A stretch of 64,000 bases of DNA, taken from positions 46,435-110,434 of the forward strand of contig JACRFK010000004.1 in assembly GCA_016217925.1 (NCBI GenBank), written 5' to 3'. Numbering within the stretch: the stretch's first letter is position 1; each line of letters opens with the position of its first letter. Both the position numbers and the translations under genes were made by a program. This stretch comes from Candidatus Kaiserbacteria bacterium (GTDB taxonomy: Bacteria; Patescibacteriota; Minisyncoccia; Phycocordibacterales; UBA2100). The notes under the pieces were generated by a model. It made no database searches. It worked only from the letters and a program-made list of their open reading frames with translations, and had not been told where the DNA came from. This document shows, one piece after another, positions 17,023 to 54,877 of this stretch.

Positions 17023-17096
17023 GCGCGCTTAGCTCAGTTGGTTAGAGCATCTCATTTACACTGAGAGGGTCGGGGGTTCGAATCCCTCAGCGCGCA
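17023..17096 (+). tRNA. tRNA-Val (TAC)
   Basis: Acceptor GCGCGCT/AGCGCGC, D-arm GCTC-AGTTGGTTA-GAGC, anticodon stem TCTCA/TGAGA with loop TTTACAC (TAC), T-arm GGGGG-TTCGAAT-CCCTC. Confidence 0.8.
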
Positions 17097-29021: not shown

Positions 29022-31214
29022 TTACTCGGCGACCGAGACAGTGGTCGTTGCTTCTTTAGTGCCTCCGGCAACTGTTTCGCAGTGAAGGAGGAACATCGCG
29101 CTCGTTGTTATCGGCGAGGTTGTCGCCGCGCCGGCGACACTCGTGTTGGAAGAGTTACGCTCGGTGAAGTCTTCCTGGTCTGGACTCGAGATGACGCAAG
29201 AGGTCATTCCTGTCGTAAGCCAGGAAAGAAGCGAGGTGCCGTTTGGGGGGACAGTTTTGGGATTCGCCACAAGAATGATGGTCGGGCGTGATACCTGGAC
29301 GGAGCATTGGGCGCCGGAGGTCTTAGCTCCGTCGACACACGCAAGAGAGTAGGTAGCGGTGTTGGTGCCGGCCGGAGGGTTCGCGACGGTCGTTGTGGCA
29401 GAGCCTCCGGGCTGGGTGGTGACGGTGAAGGAACTGCTGGAGGCGATGCCGGAGGAACAGCCGTAGGTGATGGCGATCTGCTGACCTACGTCGGCGACCT
29501 CAGGAGAGCACGAGAGGGTCGCCTTCGGCGTGCCTCCGCCTGTGGGGATGCACTGCCAATTCGTGATGCAAGCGCCGCTGTAGGTGGGCTGCCAAGAACC
29601 GGTGGTGCAGTTGTTGGGGTTGGGTCGTTGGGGTTGCATGGAGCACTGCCCTTGGGTTGACGGCGTGCACGCGACAGGCTGGGCTGGCAGAGGCATCGTC
29701 GGAGCATTGCCGCCGTAGTATTGATTCTGTTGCTGTTGTTGATACTGATACAGCTGGAGCTGATAGTTGTATTGCTGCAACTGTTGCTGGTACTGCTGTT
29801 GCTGCTGGGCATAGGCATTGGGGTCTGTGGAGCACTGTTGAGCGGCGGCAGGAGGCGGCATGGGTGGTGTCGGCTTAAAAGCATTCGCAAGGCCCTTCAG
29901 GAACGAATCGAGTGGTCCCGATGAGGAGTTTGAGGAAGAAGTCCTTCCTGTATTTGGATCTTGAAACGTTTGTTGACCCACGCGGATACAGTTGTTGGGC
30001 GGAGTTCCCGTGCTGCCGGGCGGACACTGTTGAGTCACGCTACCTTTAACGCACTCCGTGTCCCCCGCATCATTCTTCCCGCACTTGTACCCATTATTCT
30101 CAAGGTATCCCGCATCCTTCGGACCGGCCGGATAACACGTCCTTCCGCCGTCGTAACAATCGCGGGTAGCGGTCGGGTCACTGGGAGACCTGTCCAAGGA
30201 AGGATTCGAAGTGTCCCCCTTGTCACCCCCTTCCGGGATGAGAACCTTTGCGTCACCCAAATCCGGGTTTTGCTTGAAGGCATCCTCGGTCACTTGCCTA
30301 GAGGCTTCCAAGGCGGCTTGATCAGGATTGGCAAGTGCCATCTTTAGTATTTGATCGTCTGTTGGTGACGTCGCTGGCAGGGTCAGGGAAGAATCCGCGG
30401 GCTTAACGCCATAGGCGTTGTTCAAAATCTCAAGTGAGCGCGAGTCAATGCCCGACGAAATCTTGACGCCATTTACGCCGGTGCCTGTGTATGCATCAAA
30501 TGTACTTGTGTTTAATGATTGAGTAAGGATAGCGGTCTTATCGATACCGTCCATATTTGCCGTAAAACACTTAAATTCTTTTTTTGTTACGCCCATGTTA
30601 CCCCCCAAAGTAAGTACGCTATTCAGCGTATTACCTGTCGCGTTCGGTGTGCATGCCAGAGTGGCGCATTTTCCAGGCGGCATATTTGGATTCGGTTGCG
30701 TCGTCACCTTTATGCCCCCTTTATCGGAAGCAATGTCAACCTGCGCAGATTTCCCAACACATCGGTATTTAGCCGGTACCGATGCGTCCGGTATCGCCCC
30801 GACACAGTCGTCAGTCGCCTTTTCTGCAGGCTTGGCGGTTCTCTTGGTCGTTGCTGCGATTTTAGCTTCCTTGATTGCCGTTTCGCATTTCTTGGCGAGT
30901 TCGGCTCGCGCCGTTGCTTGTTGGCTGCCTACTGTATCACTGCCGATTCCCCCGGGCGCTGCGGTCTGAGACGCCGGATTGCCACCCGGCAATGTGGATT
31001 CGACACCTACGGCTACGGCCGAGAGAATCGCGACGAAAACGAATGCCGCTACTATCGAAACACCCCGAGCCGGGACTCGTCGTCTGAAAGCCACCATGTC
31101 GCAATCATGCGCCCCGCAGGCCTTTGGTGCAATGTGTATGAAGTGGAAAAGATCTCCGATCTCGGAACACATCCGAGAGGTTACGAAAAACTTATGCATA
31201 TTTTTTATAGACAT
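29022..31214 (-). CDS. giant secreted Gln-rich/Cys-rich surface protein, paralog A
   Basis: 730 aa; signal/TM (..VSIVAAFVFVAILSAVAVG..), Cys-containing central region, poly-Q/Y coiled-coil-like stretch (AQQQQQYQQQLQQYNYQLQLYQYQQQQQNQYY), then CTTGSWQPTYSGACITNWQCIPTGGG plus two Ig-like C-terminal modules. Shares a ~360-bp near-identical DNA block with paralog B. Confidence 0.7.
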   Translation of the reverse strand: MSIKNMHKFFVTSRMCSEIGDLFHFIHIAPKACGAHDCDMVAFRRRVPARGVSIVAAFVFVAILSAVAVGVESTLPGGNPASQTAAPGGIGSDTVGSQQATARAELAKKCETAIKEAKIAATTKRTAKPAEKATDDCVGAIPDASVPAKYRCVGKSAQVDIASDKGGIKVTTQPNPNMPPGKCATLACTPNATGNTLNSVLTLGGNMGVTKKEFKCFTANMDGIDKTAILTQSLNTSTFDAYTGTGVNGVKISSGIDSRSLEILNNAYGVKPADSSLTLPATSPTDDQILKMALANPDQAALEASRQVTEDAFKQNPDLGDAKVLIPEGGDKGDTSNPSLDRSPSDPTATRDCYDGGRTCYPAGPKDAGYLENNGYKCGKNDAGDTECVKGSVTQQCPPGSTGTPPNNCIRVGQQTFQDPNTGRTSSSNSSSGPLDSFLKGLANAFKPTPPMPPPAAAQQCSTDPNAYAQQQQQYQQQLQQYNYQLQLYQYQQQQQNQYYGGNAPTMPLPAQPVACTPSTQGQCSMQPQRPNPNNCTTGSWQPTYSGACITNWQCIPTGGGTPKATLSCSPEVADVGQQIAITYGCSSGIASSSSFTVTTQPGGSATTTVANPPAGTNTATYSLACVDGAKTSGAQCSVQVSRPTIILVANPKTVPPNGTSLLSWLTTGMTSCVISSPDQEDFTERNSSNTSVAGAATTSPITTSAMFLLHCETVAGGTKEATTTVSVAE
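29265..29625. repeat. ~360-bp near-identical (>95%) direct repeat shared with 32724..33084 (paralog gene-conversion tract)
   Basis: Side-by-side reading: ..cgccacaagaatgatggtcgggcgtgatacctggacggagca[t/c]tgggcgccggaggtcttagctccgtcgacaca.. matches in both copies through ..ggtggtgcagttgttggggtt..; flanks are more diverged. Confidence 0.8.
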
Positions 31215-32066: not shown

Positions 32067-34997
32067 TTACCGCATCGTGAACGGGTCCGTGAATCCGAAC
32101 TCCAGGTACAGTGGGTCGGGCGCCGACGGTGGCGTATTCGGCTCACCGAGATTTGCGTCGGCAGGAGTGTACAGATCCGCCTCTATCATATAATCGCGAC
32201 CGCTCACGAGATCTGTGTCGCACACATAAGGAGTACCCGACGGGCACGCATCGCCCGCGTTCGGTACATGCCAGTCATAACTGCCGCTCGTCGCCTTCCC
32301 TCCCGCGATAAGCCCCACGACCTCACCGCCCTGCACATCGACTAACCATAGCGATATTGCCGAGCCTGGAGGCGGATTTATCGTGCGCCAGGCGATGGTC
32401 GTCGTCGTGCCGAGCGGTACCGTCGCCCCGTCTATCGTAGAACTCGCCTCCACCAACCCGCCGGCAAAATTGTCGGGAACTCCCGCAACGTGGACAGTGG
32501 TCGTTGCTCCCTTGGTACCTCCTGCGAGAGTCTGACACTCGAGATGGATACGTGCGGCTGATGTAAGTGGCGTCGTCGTAGCCGCGCCGGCAACGCTCGT
32601 ATTACTCATATTTTGTATCGTGAAGCCGGGCATGTCCGGACTCGATATCACACAGGAATCCATCCCCGTCGTGAGCCAGCTGATGAGCGAGGTGCTGCTC
32701 GCGGCGGTAACCGTGGCGGGATTCGCCACAAGAATGATGGTCGGGCGTGATACCTGGACGGAGCACTGGGCGCCGGAGGTCTTAGCTCCGTCGACACAGG
32801 CCAGAGAGTAGGTCGCAGTGTTGGTGCCGGCGGGGGGATTCTGGACGGTCGTGGTGGCAGAGCCTCCGGGCTGGGTAGTGATGGTGAAGGAACTGCTGGA
32901 GGCGATGCCGGAGGAACAGCCGTAGGTGATGGCGATCTGCTGACCTACGTCTGCGACCTCAGGAGAGCACGAGAGGGTCGCCTTCGGCGCGCCTCCGCCC
33001 GTGGGGATGCATTGCCAATTCGTGATGCAAGCGCCGCTGTAGGTGGGCTGCCACGAGCCGGTGGTGCAGTTGTTGGGGTTTGGTTGTGGGACTTGGTCTC
33101 GGCACTGGTTGCCGGTCGACGGGGAGCATGGGGTGGGTCGTTGCGGAAGTGGTAAGTCGGGCGGCGTGATACCGCCGTTTCTTTCTGCATAGAACTGGTT
33201 CATCTGCTGCTGGTACTGCTGTTGCTGGAGCTGGTAGTTGTACTGCTGTAACTGCTGCTGGTACTGCTGTTGCTGCTGGGCGTATACGTTCTGATCGGTC
33301 GAGCAGGCTTGGGCGGGCGCGGCTGGCGGAGATTGCGGAGCACCGAGCGCTTTCATAAGTCCCTCGAGCATAGAGCTGAGCGCCTTCCCGATATCACCCC
33401 CGCCACCGCCCGGCTTGTCGCCACCCGGTTTCTCGCCACCAGTTCCCGGCCCGGCGCCCGGACCAGCCGGCGGAGTAGGCGTTTTGACCTCCGGTTTTGC
33501 ATCCGGCGTCCCGTCGCCTTTCTTGACCTCTGGCTTGACTTCCGGCTTCGGCACATCGGTCTTTGCTCCAGGTTTGGGCGCAGGCCCTGATTTTGGACAC
33601 GTTGACGCGTCGGACCCCGGGCTTCCACAAGGAGTTCCGAAAGCATCCGTCATCTGTGGAGTTTTTTTGTCTACAGAGTCTGCCTTGTCCCCAGACTTCG
33701 GCGGAGTGTTTTTCTCTCCAGCATCCGCCTTGTCTCCAGATTTCGGTGTACTTGGGCCTGATGGTGATGCGTCAGTTTTCTGCGGCGGGCTACTTCCCTG
33801 TTCATCCTTCAGCTTCTGTGCCTGAAGTCTATCCAACTCTTCTTGTTTCGCCTCAGGAAAGTTTTCGCCAGCCCCCGCGTTAGCGATTGCTTTCTCATTT
33901 TCAAGCTCTTGAATGCGCGCATCCCTCTCGAGCGCGATTTGTTTGTCTGCCTCAGCCCATGCCGCCTGGTCGGAACGAATTGTTTCCTCTAGCGCGGCTT
34001 GATTGTTTGCCCCAGCCCATGCCGCCTGGTCGGAACGAATTGTATTCTCCAGCTCGGCTCTTCTAAGTTCCTCTGGAGTGGCTGCGGGCCCAAAGGTGTC
34101 GTTGACCCCTGGCGTGGTAGGACCAAAGGCATCCTTCAGATTGGCATACTCTGCCGCCTGTTCTGGCGTGAGCTTCACGGCATTCTCACCGAGCGCTTTA
34201 TCTATCGCCCATGGATTCTCTCCTTGGTAGTCACTAGGTATCGGCGCGGTCGGGTCGTTACCGTATGCTTGAATCTGTTCCAGCGCAGTAGCCTCTTTCA
34301 ATGCCTTATCACGCAGGGCCTCATTCGAGGTGTACGCCGAATACGCGTTCCGTATTGCCTCTTGATCGCATCCTGACTGACCCGCCATACAAACTGCATC
34401 AAGTTGCGTATACGCATCTTTTTGATCTTTTGCTAACGCGTCGTACGCCGCCGCCTGGTCTCTTAGTTTTTGGATTTCATCAGCATTCGACGGGACCTTG
34501 GGCGGCTCGCCTGTCCCGGCATCGTCTGTAGGGCCTTTTGTCAACGTACATTGCTTTTCGTCGCAGATGTCCGCATGGCAGATATTCTCTGCTATACAGT
34601 AGCCTTGCGCAGCAATATCCGTATCCTCCGTATGCTGGCATTTCTTCCACGACAGATTTGTTATTATGACCTTAACGTACGAACCCTCTTGGTACGTCGG
34701 CCCCTTCGCCTTGGTCCCGTATTTATGTGTCGTGTCCTCTTTCGGGCACTCCTTATCGGCCTCTTTGGGGTCGCTGGGTGTCGACGCCGCGCTTTGTGCC
34801 AGCTGCGCTTGCGGGGCGAACGCATATGAAGAGGCTGAAGAAAACGAGTTGGCTACCTCGACGACGCCTGTTACGCCGCCGAGGATGGCTACAAACACAA
34901 GGGGGGTTACAAGAGAAAACTTTCGCTCCCGGTTGAGCGATTCGTGGAAAACCATATCACAATAATGCGGCCTATAGGGCGAAGCTGCAATGCGCAA
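32067..34997 (-). CDS. giant secreted Gln-rich/Cys-rich surface protein, paralog B
   Basis: 976 aa; signal/TM (..LVTPLVFVAILGGVTGVVEV..), Pro/Lys/Glu-rich spacer (KPEVKPEVKKGDGTPDAKPEVKTPTPP), tandem ~27-aa repeat (TIRSDQAAWA..), poly-Q/Y stretch, then the same CTTGSWQPTYSGACITNWQCIPTGGG + Ig-like tail as paralog A, plus an extra C-terminal domain. Confidence 0.7.
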   Translation of the reverse strand: MRIAASPYRPHYCDMVFHESLNRERKFSLVTPLVFVAILGGVTGVVEVANSFSSASSYAFAPQAQLAQSAASTPSDPKEADKECPKEDTTHKYGTKAKGPTYQEGSYVKVIITNLSWKKCQHTEDTDIAAQGYCIAENICHADICDEKQCTLTKGPTDDAGTGEPPKVPSNADEIQKLRDQAAAYDALAKDQKDAYTQLDAVCMAGQSGCDQEAIRNAYSAYTSNEALRDKALKEATALEQIQAYGNDPTAPIPSDYQGENPWAIDKALGENAVKLTPEQAAEYANLKDAFGPTTPGVNDTFGPAATPEELRRAELENTIRSDQAAWAGANNQAALEETIRSDQAAWAEADKQIALERDARIQELENEKAIANAGAGENFPEAKQEELDRLQAQKLKDEQGSSPPQKTDASPSGPSTPKSGDKADAGEKNTPPKSGDKADSVDKKTPQMTDAFGTPCGSPGSDASTCPKSGPAPKPGAKTDVPKPEVKPEVKKGDGTPDAKPEVKTPTPPAGPGAGPGTGGEKPGGDKPGGGGGDIGKALSSMLEGLMKALGAPQSPPAAPAQACSTDQNVYAQQQQQYQQQLQQYNYQLQQQQYQQQMNQFYAERNGGITPPDLPLPQRPTPCSPSTGNQCRDQVPQPNPNNCTTGSWQPTYSGACITNWQCIPTGGGAPKATLSCSPEVADVGQQIAITYGCSSGIASSSSFTITTQPGGSATTTVQNPPAGTNTATYSLACVDGAKTSGAQCSVQVSRPTIILVANPATVTAASSTSLISWLTTGMDSCVISSPDMPGFTIQNMSNTSVAGAATTTPLTSAARIHLECQTLAGGTKGATTTVHVAGVPDNFAGGLVEASSTIDGATVPLGTTTTIAWRTINPPPGSAISLWLVDVQGGEVVGLIAGGKATSGSYDWHVPNAGDACPSGTPYVCDTDLVSGRDYMIEADLYTPADANLGEPNTPPSAPDPLYLEFGFTDPFTMR
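32724..33084. repeat. second copy of the ~360-bp near-identical block (see 29265..29625)
   Basis: As above. Confidence 0.8.
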
Positions 34998-37014: not shown

Positions 37015-37530
37015 GAACAAAATAACTCCTGCCGCGACCGAGACGTTGAGTGACTCCTTTTTACCGTGCATGGGAATTTCCACGACCGCATCACACATTT
37101 TGAGAATATTCTGCGGAATTCCATCTACCTCGTTGCCAAAGATGAATACGATTTTCCTTTTTTTCTTTCCTCCGGAGGAGGATCCGCCTCCGGCGGAGAA
37201 CTTCCGATAGTCGATGGCGAGTGGGCTCTGCTCCACGCCGATGATACTCCACCCTTCTTTTTTCCCTCCGGAGGAGGGTCCGCCTCCGGCGGATAATTTC
37301 TTTATCAACGCGGCCGGTGATTTGTGATACTCCCAAGGTACGAATTTCTCCGCACCCAGCGCCGTCTTCGCGATATCTTTCCTGGCGCGGTCAAATCGGT
37401 CCGTTGGAGTTGGTGTATATCCGCTTAGGTATATGCGGGATACGCCAGATGCATCACAGGTGCGGAAAATAGAGCCCACATTGTGAGCACTCCGCACGTT
37501 GTGCAACAGGACCGCGATATCTTTCTTCAT
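37003..37530 (-). CDS. SpoU/TrmH-family RNA 2'-O-methyltransferase with tandem Gly/Ser-rich insertions
   Basis: 175 aa; LHNVRSAHNVGSIFRTCDASGV and C-terminal IPMHGKKESLNVSVAAGVILF are SPOUT signatures. Two adjacent insert copies: SAGGGPSSGGKKEG and SAGGGSSSGGKKKR. Confidence 0.8.
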   Translation of the reverse strand: MKKDIAVLLHNVRSAHNVGSIFRTCDASGVSRIYLSGYTPTPTDRFDRARKDIAKTALGAEKFVPWEYHKSPAALIKKLSAGGGPSSGGKKEGWSIIGVEQSPLAIDYRKFSAGGGSSSGGKKKRKIVFIFGNEVDGIPQNILKMCDAVVEIPMHGKKESLNVSVAAGVILFSVR

Positions 37531-38019: not shown

Positions 38020-38090
38020 CCCCCCGTAGCTCAGTGGTAGAGCAGCTCCCTTTTAAGGAGTTGATGTTGGTTCGATTCCAACCGGGGGGA
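38020..38090 (+). tRNA. tRNA-Lys (TTT)
   Basis: Acceptor CCCCCCG/CGGGGGG, D-arm GCTC-AGTGGTA-GAGC, anticodon stem GCTCC/GGAGT with loop CTTTTAA (TTT), T-arm GTTGG-TTCGATT-CCAAC, discriminator A. Confidence 0.75.
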
Positions 38091-38295: not shown

Positions 38296-39540
38296 CTACA
38301 CCTTCTTGGCGTAAAGCGCCTCCTCAAGCCGCTCGAGCGCAAGCGCGAACGCCGCGCGGCGCAGGTCAGTCTTTAGTTTCTTGCTCCGCTCCCACACATT
38401 CTTCGACTCACGGTCGAGCAACTTTCGCAGTTTGTGGAGCACATCTTTCTCGCTCCAGTGTTCCCCTTTCAGGTTTTGCTCCCATTCATAGGTCGAAACG
38501 ACGACACCGCCTGAATTCGCGAGGACGTCCGGAACAACGTGCACGCCTTTTTTGAACAACACGTCATCGGCTTCTGTCGAGGTCGGACCGTTGGCGAGCT
38601 CGAGGACGACTTTTGCTTTGATATTTCTCGCATTTTTCTTTGTTATTTGATTTTCAAGCGCAGCGGGAATGAGTACGTCACACGGAAGTTCGAGTAGTTT
38701 CCCGTTGGAGATGTATTTCGCATGCGGGAATCCCTTGAGAGCTCCATTCTCTTTCTTATATTTCTCCACCGCGTCCGGATCGAGGCCCCGCGGCGAGTAG
38801 ACGCCGCCTTTTGAGTCGGACATCGCGAGAACTTTGTGTCCGAGCGCATGAAAAATCTTCGCGGCATTGCCGCCGACGTTGCCCACGCCCTGTATGACCA
38901 CGGAGACCGATTCAGGCAGTTTCATTTCTGTTTGAAGCGCTTTGAAAACATCGAAGCCGCCGGCGCCGGTTGCCGCGCCGCGGCCTTCAGAGCCGCCGTA
39001 GTCGAGCGGTTTTCCGGTAAATGTCCCGTTGCGTATATCGCCGGTGAGTTTTTTATACTCATCCGCCATCCACCGCATAATTTCTGGCGTGGTGTTCACA
39101 TCCGGAGCGGGCACGTCGCGCTCTGGGCCCAAGACCGGATAGAGTGCCCCCACCCACCCGCGAGAAAGCCGTTCGAGCTCGCCTTTCGAAAGTTCTTTCG
39201 GATCGAGTGTGATGCCGCCTTTACCGCCGCCCATCGGAATACCGGCGACGGCGCATTTTATGGTCATCCAGAATGCAAGGGCCTTTACCTCATCGATATT
39301 TGCATCGTGATGAAAGCGTATGCCGCCTTTGTACGGTCCGCGTAGGGAAGAATACTGGACGCGGTACCCCTCGAATACTCGCGTCGTGCCGTCGTCCATG
39401 GTGACGGGGATGGCGACGGTTATCTCGCGCTCGGGTTTTTGCAGCCGGGCACGGAGCGCATCGGATACCTTTTGGATCTTAAGTGCGCGAGAGAGCTGGA
39501 GTTGTGCCTGCTCAAATGGGCTCACCCCGTTAGAAGCCAT
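38296..39540 (-). CDS. gdhA: NAD(P)-dependent glutamate dehydrogenase
   Basis: 414 aa; Glu/Leu/Phe/Val dehydrogenase signatures (..GGGKGGI.., ..VVIQGVGNVGGNAAK..). First codons (MASNG) lie inside an IR element; GTG 15 nt downstream is an alternative start. Confidence 0.9.
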   Translation of the reverse strand: MASNGVSPFEQAQLQLSRALKIQKVSDALRARLQKPEREITVAIPVTMDDGTTRVFEGYRVQYSSLRGPYKGGIRFHHDANIDEVKALAFWMTIKCAVAGIPMGGGKGGITLDPKELSKGELERLSRGWVGALYPVLGPERDVPAPDVNTTPEIMRWMADEYKKLTGDIRNGTFTGKPLDYGGSEGRGAATGAGGFDVFKALQTEMKLPESVSVVIQGVGNVGGNAAKIFHALGHKVLAMSDSKGGVYSPRGLDPDAVEKYKKENGALKGFPHAKYISNGKLLELPCDVLIPAALENQITKKNARNIKAKVVLELANGPTSTEADDVLFKKGVHVVPDVLANSGGVVVSTYEWEQNLKGEHWSEKDVLHKLRKLLDRESKNVWERSKKLKTDLRRAAFALALERLEEALYAKKV

Positions 39541-39602
39541 ACATAAGTTCAGCTAGTGATAAATAACCCGTGAAATGTAATTGAGCGAAGCTTCTAACGG
39601 GG
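39525..39602. repeat. IR element #3 (arms CCCCGTTAGAAGC / GCTTCTAACGGGG) at the gdh start
   Basis: Arm followed immediately by GTG (in frame with the annotated ATG that lies just inside the arm). Confidence 0.7.
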
Positions 39603-39671
39603 CTCATACCTGCCATGTACGCATAGTACACGAACGGCTCGATATTATTCCAAACAGGAGGGTGTGGCTAA

Positions 39672-48368: not shown

Positions 48369-48650
48369 ATGGTGGAAAACTCTAATTTCTTTGAAGACCA
48401 AGAGAAGCGAGCGGCCGCGCGAGCGGCTTTGGTTGCGCGCAGAAAAGCCGGACGGGAGGTGGGTCTGCAAGCAGCGCTGAACAATATACATACGGTTGGT
48501 GAAGAGGTCCGAAAGGGACTGACTGACAGTACCGGTGCCGCCCAGGAAGAAACAGAACGCGCTAATACCCAGTCCCGCGAAAGAATAGCGGCCATAGCAA
48601 AAGAGTTGGATGAAAAATTAAAGAGGCGACGAGAGGAGTCGGAATTGTAG
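48369..48650 (+). CDS. small charged hypothetical protein
   Basis: 93 aa, Ala/Arg/Glu-rich; begins 4 nt after the pilB stop. Confidence 0.35.
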   Translation: MVENSNFFEDQEKRAAARAALVARRKAGREVGLQAALNNIHTVGEEVRKGLTDSTGAAQEETERANTQSRERIAAIAKELDEKLKRRREESEL

Positions 48651-48717
48651 TTTTACACCACAAGACCCCGCATGCCCGTCTGAGGCATTGACTTTGGACG
48701 CGGTACAATAGTGAGGT

Positions 48718-49110
48718 ATGCTGGAGAAGAAAAAACTGCTCATGGTAGACGACGACGCGTTCTTCACGTCGATTATCACCAATGCCTTTAGAAAACATGG
48801 CTGCGAGACCCTCTCGGCGCGTGACGGCAGGAGCGGCATCGAGCTCGCGCGGAAAGAGCGCCCTGATCTCATACTCCTTGATATGGCGATGGTCGGCATG
48901 GACGGTTTTGAGACGCTCTCGACCCTCAAAAAAGATTCTGCGACCGCGAGTATCCCCGTCATTATCTTCTCGGGAAGTGCGGGCAGCAGCGATACGGAAA
49001 AACAGGAGCGGGCAAAGCAAGCGGGTGCGGTGGACTACCTCGAAAAAATGCAGTTCACGCCTGAGCAGTTATGGGAGCGTGTGAAGGGATTCCTCGTGTC
49101 GCCGCTTTAG
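48718..49110 (+). CDS. single-domain response regulator (CheY-like receiver)
   Basis: 130 aa; acidic pocket DDD, phospho-acceptor Asp in LILLDMAMVGMDG, conserved Thr/Lys positions. Confidence 0.85.
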   Translation: MLEKKKLLMVDDDAFFTSIITNAFRKHGCETLSARDGRSGIELARKERPDLILLDMAMVGMDGFETLSTLKKDSATASIPVIIFSGSAGSSDTEKQERAKQAGAVDYLEKMQFTPEQLWERVKGFLVSPL

Positions 49111-49210
49111 ACCACAAAACCCCGTTGCGCGGGGGCAGCGGGGTGTTATCGTGGAAGTAGTTGACTCCTTCTTCGCTCGTGATGCTCACGAGCTATGGAC
49201 GGACGAGATA

Positions 49211-49345
49211 GGGGCTCGATTCTCTCAGCGACGCTTTCGGGAGAAAGTTGCAACGCGGACCTAAGGATGGCGGAAGCCGTCCCGCCAAGGCGGGAAACCG
49301 CCGCGTCCTCGGTAAAGTTACTATCGTTGAGAGAATCGTGACCCC
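49211..49345 (+). ncRNA. candidate structured ncRNA, unclassified
   Basis: ~135 nt intergenic. 14+4-bp closing helix GGGGCUCGAUUCUCUCAGCG / CGUUGAGAGAAUCGUGACCCC encloses three hairpins: CUUUC-GGGA-GAAAG, GGAUGGC-GGAA-GCCGUCC and CCCGC-CAAG-GCGGG, plus a CGCGG/CCGCG inner helix. GNRA loops exist only on the plus strand. Confidence 0.45.
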
Positions 49346-49408
49346 GTCATAATTCGTTTAAACACTAGGCGAAAGTGTAGCATATATAATACAAAAGTCA
49401 AGCCCATT

Positions 49409-49420
49409 AGAGAGCTCCGC
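49409..49420. repeat. solitary arm (GCCTCTAACGGG) of the IR element family, 55 nt upstream of ruvB
   Basis: Same 12-mer as the arms at 58376 and 3084-type elements; only a degenerate partner (ccccgtcata) upstream. Confidence 0.5.
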
Positions 49421-49476
49421 CTCTAACGGGCCAAGGCACCTTCTTTCGGTCCAATCGGACCCAAATAAGCCAACGT

Positions 49477-50490
49477 ATGACCAACAAAGACCAACAAGCC
49501 GTAGAAAAAAGCCCGCGCTCGCTCGACCAGGCGCTGCGCCCTGATTCGTGGGCGGAGTACGTCGGCCAGGAGGCGATCAAAGAAAATCTCCGCATTCTTT
49601 TGCAGGCCGCCAAAGGCCGCAACCACCAGCCCGAGCACGTGCTTCTCTACGGGCCACCGGGCCTCGGTAAAACAACGCTCGCCCACTTGATGGCCAAAGA
49701 GGTCGGCGCGAATCTCCGCTCGACTTCCGGTCCGGCAATCGAGCGCGTCGGCGATCTCGCTGCAATCCTCACGAATCTTTCGCCGGGCGATGTGCTCTTC
49801 ATCGACGAAATACACCGACTCAACCGCACGATTGAAGAAGTGATGTACCCCGCGATGGAAGCGGGCGTGCTCGACATCGTTATTGGCAAAGGGCCAAGCG
49901 CGCGAACCGTGCAGCTGGAACTTCCGCCATTCACACTGATTGCCGCGACAACAAGAATTTCAATGCTCTCCGCGCCACTACGCAGCCGCTTTTCCGGCGG
50001 CACATTCCGCTTGCAGTACTACACGGATGCTGAAATTGCGGAAATCTTGCGCCGCTCCGCAAAAATATTGCACATCGATATCGACATGGACTCGCTCAAA
50101 GAAGTTTCGCAACGCAGCCGCTCCACTCCGCGCACCGCCAACTACTTATTGAAACGCGCGCGCGACTTTGCGGCGGTGAACGAAGAGAAATTGGACTTGA
50201 AGACGGTGAAAAAAGCGCTCGCGCTTCTCGAAATCGACGAGGGCGGACTCAACCAGACCGACCGCGACATCCTCACGCTCCTCATCGAGAAATTCGGCGG
50301 TGGCCCGGTCGGACTCAAAACAATTGCGGCCGCGCTTTCGGAAGAAGAGGCGACGATAGAAGAAGTAAACGAGCCGTACCTCATGCAAACGGGGCTCATC
50401 GAAAGAACCCCGCGCGGAAGAACGGTGACGAAAAAAGGCTACGAGCACATGGGTGCCGATGCGCCTCGCGCGCAAGAAAAACTTTTGTAG
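49477..50490 (+). CDS. ruvB: Holliday junction DNA helicase RuvB
   Basis: 337 aa; AAA+ Walker A LLYGPPGLGKTTLA, Walker B VLFIDEIHRL, sensor/arginine fingers, winged-helix C-terminus. Confidence 0.95.
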   Translation: MTNKDQQAVEKSPRSLDQALRPDSWAEYVGQEAIKENLRILLQAAKGRNHQPEHVLLYGPPGLGKTTLAHLMAKEVGANLRSTSGPAIERVGDLAAILTNLSPGDVLFIDEIHRLNRTIEEVMYPAMEAGVLDIVIGKGPSARTVQLELPPFTLIAATTRISMLSAPLRSRFSGGTFRLQYYTDAEIAEILRRSAKILHIDIDMDSLKEVSQRSRSTPRTANYLLKRARDFAAVNEEKLDLKTVKKALALLEIDEGGLNQTDRDILTLLIEKFGGGPVGLKTIAAALSEEEATIEEVNEPYLMQTGLIERTPRGRTVTKKGYEHMGADAPRAQEKLL

Positions 50491-52432: not shown

Positions 52433-54877
52433 ATGGCCGCAGTACGACGTCTTTTCAGACGTATAAAGGTTATCTTCCGCAGCATGCCGCGATGGCTCGA
52501 GGCGGGCCTCCTCATCGCCGCCGTGGCGACATTTCTCATACTCGGCAGCGGGATCATTTGGGCGACCGTGATGCCGATACCGGCGATTAACAACTTCGAG
52601 AACAGGCAGGTCGCGCAATCGACCAAGATATTTGACCGCACCGGCAACATTGTCCTCTACGATGTACACGGCAGAATGCGTCGCACTGCCGTACCTCTCG
52701 ATGAAATTAGTCCGTACATCCAAAAAGCTTCCATCGCGGTCGAGGACTCGACTTTCTACGAGAACGCCGGATTCCGCCCGCTCTCATTCTTGCGCGCGGT
52801 CATGGCGAACGTGTTTTCCGGTTCGTACGCCCAAGGTGGCTCGACCATTACACAGCAAGTCGTCAAGAACGCGCTTCTCACACAAGACAAAACCATCATC
52901 CGCAAGATAAAGGAGATAATCCTCGCTCTGCGTCTTACGCGCGTCTACACCAAGGACCAGATACTGAACACGTATCTCAACGAGACGGCATACGGCGGCA
53001 CTATCTACGGCGTCGAAGAGGCGAGCCAATATTTCTTCGGTGTTCCCGCAAAGGACGTGGACTTGGCGCAGGCGGCATACCTCGCAGCTCTTCCACAAGC
53101 GCCAACGTACTATTCTCCCTATGGGAATCACCGCGAGGCACTCGATGCGCGCAAAAATCTCGTACTCGGCCAAATGCTTGAAAATAATTTTATTACGAAA
53201 GAGGAGTATGAGCAGGCCAAGAACGAGGAGGTCCAATTCAACGACCCGAAGAACGCGGGTATCAAAGCTCCGCATTTCGTGTTCTTTATCCAAGAATATC
53301 TTGAGCAAAAATACGGCGCCGACGCAGTGAACCAGGGAGGCCTCCATGTCGTGACCACGCTCGATTATGCTCTCCAGCAAAAAGCGGAGGCAAGCGTCGC
53401 AGAATTCGCGCCTGGCCTATTGAAGAACCTGAACGCATCGAACCAAGGTGTCGTGGCGATTGATCCAAAGACCGGACAGATACTCGCCATGGTCGGCTCG
53501 AAGGGGTACTTCGACGACACCATCGATGGAAAAGTGAATATCACGCTCGCGAACCGGCAGCCGGGCTCCTCATTCAAGCCGTTCGTTTACGTGACCGCGT
53601 TCGAAAAAGGCTACACGGCCGACACGGTGGTCTTCGACCTTCCGACGCAATTCTCAGCGGCGTGTGCACCGACCGACGTCACGAACGGCACATACCCCTG
53701 TTACGCCCCGACCAACTTCGACGGAGGTTTCGAGGGCCCCATGAAATTGCGCGACGCGCTCGCTCGGTCCGAGAACATTCCCGCCGTCAAAGTCCTCTAC
53801 CTCGCGGGCATTCAAAATTCTATCGAGACGGCACAGAAACTCGGCATCACGACCCTGACCGAACCCGCGAATCATTACGGTCTTACGCTCGTCCTAGGCG
53901 GTGGGGGCGTCAACCTCTTGGAGATGACGGGCGCTTACAGCGTCTTTGCGAATGACGGCGTCAAGAACCCGGCGACGGGTATCTTGCGTGTGGAGGATAC
54001 CTCGGGGAATACTCTCGAGACCTACCAGGAGCAAAGCATACGAGTCCTCGAACCTCGCGTCACGCGGCTTCTCAACGACATTCTCTCAGACAATGTCGCG
54101 AGGTCACCAGAGTTCGGCCTGAACTCGCCGCTCCATTTCCCCACCTACGACGTCGCGGTGAAGACGGGAACGACCAACGACTTCCGCGATGCGTGGATAA
54201 TAGGTTACTCGCCGGGAATCGCCGTCGGAGCGTGGACAGGCAACAACGATAACTCATCGATGGTGAAAAACCCGGCTTCATTCATCGTTGCTCCGATGTG
54301 GCATGATTTTATGGTCGAAGCGCTCTCCAAGTATTCCTCGCCCTCGGACACCTTCCCCGCCCCGGGGCCGGATCCTGACATTGCCACAATGCCACCAGTG
54401 TTGACAGGCAATTTGAATACGGACCCGTCGCAGGGCGTTCACGAAATCCTCTACTGGGTAGACAAAGACAACCCCCGAGCCGGGCGCCCCGCAAATCCGG
54501 CAAGCGACCCGCAATTCGCGTACTGGGAGTACCCGGTATCGCTCTGGGCCGGCCAGCAGACAAATCTTGGGAGTAGCACCACGCCCTCGATCGTGAGCAC
54601 GCTCGTACCCTCTGCAGGATTCCGCATCATGTCTCCTTACGCCGGAGAGGTGATTAACTTTGGTGTCGCCCCGCTTTTTGCCGCGGAGTCGTCTCGCCCG
54701 CAGACAATGCTCAGCGTCTCGTATTATGCCAATGGCGCCTTCATAGGCACCTCTGGCCAGCCACCCTACCTTGTCTCCTACCGCCCCGCCGCTCCTGGCA
54801 GCGTGACGCTGCGCGCGGTCGCAAAACACTCTGATGGTTCGGGGGAAGAACAAACCATCACTTTCACGGTTCAATAA
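52433..54877 (+). CDS. class A penicillin-binding protein (PBP1A: GT51 transglycosylase + transpeptidase)
   Basis: 814 aa; GT51 motifs EDSTFYENAG, GGSTITQQ, RKIKE; transpeptidase SxxK (GSSFKP), SxN, KTGT; N-terminal TM anchor. Confidence 0.92.
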   Translation: MAAVRRLFRRIKVIFRSMPRWLEAGLLIAAVATFLILGSGIIWATVMPIPAINNFENRQVAQSTKIFDRTGNIVLYDVHGRMRRTAVPLDEISPYIQKASIAVEDSTFYENAGFRPLSFLRAVMANVFSGSYAQGGSTITQQVVKNALLTQDKTIIRKIKEIILALRLTRVYTKDQILNTYLNETAYGGTIYGVEEASQYFFGVPAKDVDLAQAAYLAALPQAPTYYSPYGNHREALDARKNLVLGQMLENNFITKEEYEQAKNEEVQFNDPKNAGIKAPHFVFFIQEYLEQKYGADAVNQGGLHVVTTLDYALQQKAEASVAEFAPGLLKNLNASNQGVVAIDPKTGQILAMVGSKGYFDDTIDGKVNITLANRQPGSSFKPFVYVTAFEKGYTADTVVFDLPTQFSAACAPTDVTNGTYPCYAPTNFDGGFEGPMKLRDALARSENIPAVKVLYLAGIQNSIETAQKLGITTLTEPANHYGLTLVLGGGGVNLLEMTGAYSVFANDGVKNPATGILRVEDTSGNTLETYQEQSIRVLEPRVTRLLNDILSDNVARSPEFGLNSPLHFPTYDVAVKTGTTNDFRDAWIIGYSPGIAVGAWTGNNDNSSMVKNPASFIVAPMWHDFMVEALSKYSSPSDTFPAPGPDPDIATMPPVLTGNLNTDPSQGVHEILYWVDKDNPRAGRPANPASDPQFAYWEYPVSLWAGQQTNLGSSTTPSIVSTLVPSAGFRIMSPYAGEVINFGVAPLFAAESSRPQTMLSVSYYANGAFIGTSGQPPYLVSYRPAAPGSVTLRAVAKHSDGSGEEQTITFTVQ

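Follow-up and report, generated by a model that had tools for sequence, protein, structure and literature searches.

The DNA in front of ruvB in this genome raises a question in three parts: what is the folded element that lies there, which strand is it written on, and does it bear on ruvB itself? The window, by which we mean the whole 64,000-nt stretch of Candidatus Kaiserbacteria DNA that was analysed, has a non-coding gap of 366 nt (49111-49476) between a response-regulator ORF at 48718-49110 and ruvB at 49477-50490, in line with the ~370 bp reported when the locus was first described. The original prediction, made from the sequence alone, placed in this gap a candidate structured plus-strand RNA of ~135 nt with a long closing helix, and proposed that it might be a riboregulator or leader of ruvB. 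As explained below, comparison of homologous loci points instead to a gene for a small RNA (sRNA) on the minus strand, and we put the probability that both this identity and this strand are correct at about 0.7.

A conserved fold upstream of ruvB

The segment at 49211-49345 folds on the plus strand with a minimum free energy of -67.5 kcal/mol (z -5.2), a value that was equalled by none of 200 shuffles, and the closing helix has 15+1+4 pairs in this single-sequence fold. The segment thus folds as the first description has it. The reverse complement of the same segment folds at -65.5 kcal/mol (z -5.4). As the two strands fold equally well, single-sequence folding gives no strand information.

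The element is confined to one lineage and is found at one place. RuvB homologues at 83-93% identity carry the names Candidatus Kaiserbacteria, Paceibacterota or Patescibacteria, and on every contig with a close RuvB homologue the gap 5' of ruvB measures 340-445 nt and the conserved core recurs in it. In a RuvB-based scan of metagenomes, the element was present in all 35 distinct upstream regions, where RuvB identity ranged from 81 to 97%. Many of the loci come from groundwater at Rifle (RIFCSP) and Hainich (Hain-H41/H43). GTDB was searched by a DNA-pattern scan of one genome per species, which returned 51 matches. Forty-eight of these score 104-145 bits with the covariance model, while the other three, in Proteobacteria or Myxococcota, have no covariance-model score and are chance matches. 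The carriers (35 metagenome loci and 48 GTDB species) are all Kaiserbacteria/Paceibacterota, and the element is retained in every Kaiserbacteria species sampled; the sample includes a complete chromosome, CP066682, which at 859 kb is below 1 Mb. In 45 of the 48 GTDB loci ruvB is adjacent and divergent to the modelled minus-strand RNA, and the remaining three stop too early to show the ruvB neighbourhood. Loci of ruvB from other phyla, at 54-62% identity, gave no match. A second RuvB homologue search, started from the most distant carrier (L141), returned the same clade only, at identities of at least 79%, and so reached no outer edge.

The element is also single copy, being present once in the 64-kb window and giving one pattern match per GTDB genome, bar one mixed bin. 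Two copies of the sRNA occur in the metagenome-assembled genome DATDWX01 (L094 and L124), on two contigs and each beside its own ruvB. These ruvB genes are 81% and 97% identical to that of the window, and the bin probably mixes two Kaiserbacteria.

Covariation, which the original prediction had named as a check, is extensive. Across 70 distinct sequences the consensus has 45 pairs, 29 of which show compensatory changes on both sides, and 94.7% of cells are paired. None of 500 shuffles matched the observed pairing and covariation values, and in a control where partners were slid by 1-3 columns, pairing was ~40%. The features of the core, read on the minus strand, are these:

49211-49345, minus strand: core three-way junction, defined by folding and covariation
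49211-49233 with 49323-49345, minus strand: closing helix P1, long, with small internal loops
49234-49247, minus strand: short hairpin P1a, on the 3' side of the junction
49250-49254 with 49317-49321, minus strand: helix P2 (5 bp), stacked directly on P1
49259-49267 with 49306-49313, minus strand: helix P3
49271-49277 with 49297-49303, minus strand: helix P4
49281-49294, minus strand: apical CUUG hairpin

Not all of the helices first drawn are part of this consensus. The closing helix has compensatory changes, as do two of the three hairpins that it was said to enclose: the CUUUC/GAAAG hairpin, in which the pairing is conserved and the loop varies, and the hairpin with the CAAG loop, which is CUUG on the other strand. 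The third, GGAUGGC-GGAA-GCCGUCC, is unconserved and its supposed GGAA loop falls within one strand of helix P4. Also unconserved is the inner CGCGG/CCGCG helix, in place of which the conserved pairings are GCAAC/GUUAC (P2) and ACC..AGGA/UCCU.GGU (P3).

In the minus sense, P3 is formed by ACC.AGGA with UCCU..GGU, and its AGGA/UCCU portion is invariant. The internal loop between P2 and P3 is U-rich on one side and C-rich on the other (UUU versus CCNN). Invariance of the internal loops (UUU / CCNN; GAGGACG / AUCCUUAGG) suggests that the fold is also a platform for protein recognition or stability. The apex varies, being a bare UUCG or CUUG loop or carrying an inserted hairpin that is mostly CUUG-capped. 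Insertions in the apical loop reach ~100 nt in L008 (2623-2860) and ~50 nt in L019 (1227-1416), and from these it follows that the apex tolerates expansion. At the other end of the molecule, a natural deletion variant, L011 (1265-1417), has lost the outer portion of P1 together with the region of the predicted start.

The window contains other folded and repeated sequences. A second folded intergenic element at 57675-57785 consists of a 28-bp near-perfect inverted repeat that closes two GC-rich hairpins; it folds at -72.4 kcal/mol (z -6.8), has no Rfam match and sits in a gap of ~400 nt between ORFs 56208-57572 (minus) and 57970-58317 (plus). A REP-like palindrome, CCCCGTTAGAA...TTCTAACGGGG, occurs at 39523-39542 / 59240-59259, at 39587-39607 / 59172-59192 and at 49404-49432, this last site being in the probable ruvB leader, and a long REP-like version stands in place of the sRNA terminator hairpin in four loci (L091, L043, L045 and L136). 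A direct repeat of 300 nt (29259-29558 versus 32718-33017, 94% identity) and a repeat of 126 nt (29733-29858 versus 33204-33329, 77% identity) lie inside two large ORFs of the minus strand (29022-31214 and 32067-34997) that are probably paralogues. Finally, there are two short repeats at 33927-34046 and 37156-37300, one a 60-nt unit in tandem (87% identical) and the other a 49-nt unit whose copies are spaced 96 nt apart (86%), both probably in coding sequence.

Predicted promoters, terminator and ruvB leader

The signals that flank the core, together with ruvB, are as follows:

49396-49401, minus strand: TTGACT, the -35 box of P_right (the sRNA promoter), from the promoter scan; TTGAC(A/T) stands at a fixed distance from the extended -10 in 69/70 homologues
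49374-49382, minus strand: extended -10 TGCTACACT of P_right, from the promoter scan and conservation
49346-49366, minus strand: short 5' leader with the predicted start A at 49366, placed from the promoter position
49153-49210, minus strand: variable linker on the 3' side; its extra hairpin (49175-49193) is clade-specific
49111-49143, minus strand: intrinsic terminator from the terminator scan, a hairpin (49120-49143) followed by UUUUGUGGU (49119-49111)
49144-49152, plus strand: extended -10 TGTTATCGT of the probable ruvB promoter (P_left), which reads ACGAUAACA on the sRNA strand, just before the terminator
49125-49130, plus strand: -35-like TTGCGC of P_left, inside the sRNA terminator stem
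49477-50490, plus strand: ruvB, the invariant neighbour, starting 75 nt past the sRNA -35 box

P_right is a near-consensus promoter of the form TTGAC(A/T)-N13-TGnTAnnnT and is found on the minus strand in 69 of the 70 distinct sequences; the sole exception is L011, the natural deletion variant. Within the extended -10, the TG, T1, A2 and T6 are invariant and other positions vary, and the spacer is likewise free to vary except for a TRTG-like motif. The -10 resembles those of the tRNA promoters GCTACTCT and GCTATAGT in the window. A conserved C-A-G lies 7-8 nt past the -10, and this places the predicted start of the sRNA at 49366. Roughly half of the species have a covarying stem-loop here, AGAAGCGG..CCGCUUUU, consisting of a hairpin and a U-run, with which the RNA would begin. 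As the stem includes the +1 nucleotides and a G.U pair (A.C on the other strand), we read it as a protective 5' stem-loop, although a hairpin plus U-run could act as an early terminator instead of protecting the end.

At the other end, the 3' block is fixed at 42 nt and consists of A..nTAnCA, a 9-bp hairpin and then UUUUGUGGU. The stem of the terminator is GC-rich and 86% paired, with compensatory changes in 4 pairs, and in ~10 species the hairpin is swapped for a longer palindrome. Upstream of this block, the extra hairpin at 49175-49193 is present in the closest relatives only (L012, for example) and is absent or different elsewhere. The RNA predicted from these signals would span 49366 to ~49112 on the minus strand, or ~255 nt, and folds at -105.6 kcal/mol (z -5.3).

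The second candidate promoter, P_left, faces the other way. All 70 sequences have TGnTAnnnT at the same place (the regular expression fixes the TG, T, A and last T), with the middle T of the -10 in 57/70 and other positions free. In 58/70 a TTGnnn, mostly TTGC, is found 16-18 nt from this -10, so that the 3' block in the plus sense reads TTGCnn, 16 nt, TGnTATnnT. By our own estimate, ~0.17 such motifs would be expected per flank by chance. Judged from the alignment, this pattern, in which few positions are fixed and the rest are free, is that of a promoter and not that of an RNA seed. The extended -10 of P_left overlaps the sRNA terminator.

Where, then, would ruvB be transcribed from? The 41-139 nt that separate the ruvB ATG from the sRNA promoter contain no conserved plus-strand promoter, and the sequence between the element and this ATG is unconserved, bar the minus-strand promoter. 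In five species (L096, L102, L103, L120 and L132) the ATG is only 2-3 nt from the sRNA -35 box. A ruvB promoter within the AT-rich spacer of the sRNA promoter was considered and rejected, as no hexamer there is conserved beyond what the sRNA promoter needs (TRTG). In addition, where the left neighbour is divergent, ruvB cannot be co-transcribed with it. As P_left is the sole conserved candidate, as the ATG can be this close to the -35 box, and as co-transcription with a divergent left gene is excluded, we infer that ruvB is transcribed from P_left. Its transcript would start near 49159, and the leader, ~320 nt long, would be antisense to the sRNA throughout.

In most of the 35 metagenome loci the neighbour to the left is a plus-strand gene that converges on the sRNA. 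The possibility that the element is the minus-strand leader of a leftward gene is rejected because of this orientation, which was checked in the 35 metagenome loci, and also because the leftward gene, where there is one, is preceded by a -10 box of its own at 6-7 nt from the ATG.

L015, L027, L032 and L048 have, on the left side of the sRNA terminator, a leftward gene for a protein of ~115-130 aa (MVNE...). Directly past the terminator U-tract comes GGTGTAAAGT or GGTGTAGAGT, and the gene begins 6-7 nt beyond it. This has the look of a leaderless mRNA, with a -10 box that adjoins the sRNA terminator. The GGTGTAGAGT motif also precedes the tRNA at window position 38020. A separate motif, GAAAGrGCGGGATaCAaTA, occurs four times (17498, 20653, 28520 and 52404), with the last copy ending 11 nt before the ATG at 52433, and probably serves near-leaderless genes as a common promoter.

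The arrangement of the signals in the ruvB gap suggests how the locus might work. The element would be a single-copy sRNA gene that is transcribed independently from a sigma-70-type promoter with an extended -10 and ended by an intrinsic terminator. In the product, P1 would stack on an irregular rod of P2, P3 and P4 capped by CUUG or UUCG, with the side hairpin P1a branching off, and the RNA would be abundant and stable. That a stable sRNA is made from the minus strand is, on the comparative evidence, likely. Its strong promoter would fire head-on against P_left, and sRNA transcripts would cross P_left. Here, ruvB could be negatively controlled in cis by promoter occlusion or polymerase collision, and duplexes of sRNA and leader would be substrates for RNase III, lowering ruvB expression. 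This antagonism of ruvB, which is suggested by promoter geometry, is a tentative proposal that we hold at distinctly less than even odds.

Its nearest competitor, which we consider rather unlikely and place slightly below it, is that the RNA is a trans-acting or protein-binding housekeeping RNA, an analogue of 6S, Y or CsrB-type RNAs, whose position in the ruvB leader is accidental. The elaborate three-way junction, with its invariant internal-loop residues and constant helix lengths, is of a kind that would fit such an RNA, and so are the stable tetraloops, the strong promoter and the protective 5' stem-loop seen in many species. Every species sampled has kept the element, in a lineage whose genomes are very small, and nesting alone would be enough to give the synteny with ruvB. 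Against this, the element has no linked gene for a partner protein and no Rfam family is matched. In addition, the overlap of terminator and P_left is kept in 70/70 sequences, even where the hairpin has been replaced, which suggests that the arrangement matters. The two models are compatible and not mutually exclusive. A protein-binding scaffold that acts in trans, possibly in addition to a role in cis, is a part of the proposal that we regard as doubtful.

The strand that carries the structure

The minus strand is most likely the one that bears the structure. When RNAalifold was applied to the same MAFFT columns, the minus sense gave -48.2 kcal/mol with a structure conservation index (SCI) of 0.77 and the plus sense gave -35.4 kcal/mol with an SCI of 0.59. 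With separate alignments, the values were -54.2 kcal/mol and 45 pairs for minus versus -35.4 kcal/mol and 35 pairs for plus. In the minus sense P2 is 100% paired and covaries at three positions (UG:56/CG:14; GC:31/GU:23/AU:16), while in the plus sense its wobble cells become C.A or A.C mismatches. The reading of strand from such G.U asymmetry follows a principle established for RNAstrand (PMC1892782).

Further support comes from counts made on alignment A5, which was fitted to the minus-strand model and so biases pair-cell, G.U/A.C and parsimony counts toward minus: G.U cells outnumber A.C cells by 279 to 56 in the minus sense, and parsimony on a neighbour-joining tree gives 96 wobble-type changes that fit minus versus 38 that fit plus. 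By helix, these changes divide 21:0 in P2, 42:6 in P3/P4 and 33:32 in P1, so that the inner helices (P2-P4) favour minus by 63 to 6 and P1 alone is strand-neutral. The pairing of P2 and the same-column RNAalifold comparison are independent of the fitting of A5.

Loops had led the original prediction to the opposite strand, as GNRA-type loops appeared in the plus orientation only. This diagnostic did not hold, since the apical loops in the minus sense are CUUG or UUCG, which are stable tetraloops, and the plus-strand reading is probably wrong, given the energies, the P2 pairing and the wobble-type changes listed above. The lesson is that GNRA loops in one sequence can give the wrong strand call. 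Some observations do run the other way: the clade of the window itself has one plus-sense G.U pair in P1, which in the minus sense is A.C, P1a is capped in 22/70 sequences by a plus-sense GNRA loop (GGGA or GUAA), and conserved unpaired residues are A-rich on plus and U/C-rich on minus. Covariance models were also built, one per strand (R1 and R2), and both score ~126 bits on 47 GTDB sequences outside the training alignments; with equal scores, this test says nothing about strand.

The same facts bear on the idea that the plus-strand structure is a cis-regulatory leader or riboswitch in the ruvB 5' UTR, with P_left as its promoter. In every case the element lies upstream of ruvB, on the ruvB side, P_left is just 5' of P1 in 70/70 sequences, and in many lineages P1 begins a few nt from the predicted start; the GNRA loops of P1a, the A-rich loops and a plus covariance model that scores as well as the minus model are all compatible with it. 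What makes this reading improbable is that a plus-strand RNA would have C.A or A.C mismatches in at least a quarter of P2 and P4 cells, with the inner-helix changes and the consensus energy and SCI against it as well. It would also leave a near-consensus minus-strand promoter and a U-tract terminator, in ~70 sequences, with no explanation. Moreover, the element has neither a terminator/antiterminator nor an SD-sequestering helix after it on the plus strand, and the terminator scan found no plus-strand terminator-like site within 48600-49600. Of the earlier leader or riboregulator idea, the link to ruvB survives in another form, as the plus transcript is probably its leader, and the structured plus-strand leader probably does not.

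That there is no RNA gene here at all, and that the element is a palindromic DNA repeat (MITE/REP-like) or a 48-aa plus-strand ORF (49195-49341), is extremely improbable: the long terminal inverted repeat, the REP-like palindromes known in this genome and the ATG-started frame that spans the element are set against a single copy in the window (a match with 3 mismatches at 17073 is the T-arm/acceptor end of a tRNA and is coincidental), one match per whole GTDB genome, a strictly syntenic position and covariation that includes G.U pairs, and the small protein gene is ruled out by a start that is unconserved, its ATG lying in a clade-specific insertion, and by frequent indels of any length among homologues, including those of ~50 and ~100 nt.

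Relation to known RNAs and meaning for the lineage

The proposed minus-strand sRNA matches no family catalogued in Rfam 15. At gathering thresholds, the 4227 models of Rfam 15 found seven tRNAs and nothing else in the whole window. At E<=10, with both strands of 49050-49520 searched, there was one match, to a 21-nt viral pseudoknot model (E=4.6) that lies outside the element, and at E<=5 nothing was found at the element in seven relatives. These cmscan results, which assign the element to no family, uphold the first description in its view that SRP, RNase P, tmRNA and 6S RNA do not fit. Searches of the literature on non-coding RNAs of CPR, Kaiserbacteria or Parcubacteria found nothing relevant, and no regulatory RNA described for the group. 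The element probably represents a new RNA family, though of a familiar kind: bacterial sRNAs that have a promoter and terminator of their own, here probably cis-antisense.

Cis-encoded antisense sRNAs that lie over the 5' leader of a neighbour include SymR/symE, RNA-OUT/RNA-IN of IS10, CopA/CopT and RNAI/RNAII. Like these, the element would encode a short RNA, predicted here to be stable, that has conserved stem-loops and is driven by a strong promoter and ended by a terminator of its own. It would be complementary throughout to the leader of its neighbour, which in this case is placed from a promoter motif only, and the promoters would be convergent, making interference and duplexes possible. 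Unlike the one to three hairpins of SymR/CopA/RNAI-type RNAs, the Kaiserbacteria element has a three-way junction of ~135 nt with invariant internal loops, and in contrast to their open "kissing" loops it has closed, stable tetraloops at the apex. The overlap with the target also differs, in that it leaves out the ribosome-binding site.

Other comparisons are less close. 6S RNA (RF00013) shares a strong housekeeping-type promoter, a length of ~200 nt, a closing helix made by both ends and a single copy. The central bubble of 6S is absent, however, as P1 passes straight into P2 on the 5' side (0 unpaired nt) and the 3' side has just 2 nt plus P1a, and cmscan gives no 6S match even at E<=10. With riboswitches and structured 5' leaders the element has in common a junction fold closed by P1 and a position upstream of a gene, but the structure most likely sits on the strand opposite to the gene, and no expression platform follows it. 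Lineage-restricted structured RNAs were reportedly found by comparative genomics by Weinberg et al. in 2017, with raiA, OLE, ROOL and HEARO-type RNAs as examples. The element resembles motifs of this type in being defined by covariation, limited to a single lineage and free of a known partner or function; it differs in being smaller, in having a clear promoter and terminator and a fixed partner in ruvB, and in lying outside the 4227 families of Rfam 15.

As the element is kept in every sampled Kaiserbacteria species behind a near-consensus promoter, the RNA likely matters to the cell, and it is a candidate for a new Rfam family. A bolder view, to which we give limited credence, is that this is a class-wide and highly expressed Kaiserbacteria RNA with a three-way-junction fold not seen before, which would be either the RNA component of a new ribonucleoprotein or the core of a switch, made of convergent promoters, that adjusts how much of the Holliday-junction motor RuvB is present in these reduced-genome bacteria. 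If the proposed arrangement is true, an sRNA gene is nested antisense in the leader of a recombination gene and has its own terminator built into the promoter of its target. The head-on layout with the probable ruvB promoter would make this locus a test case for control of DNA recombination by antisense RNA or transcription interference in an uncultivated lineage.
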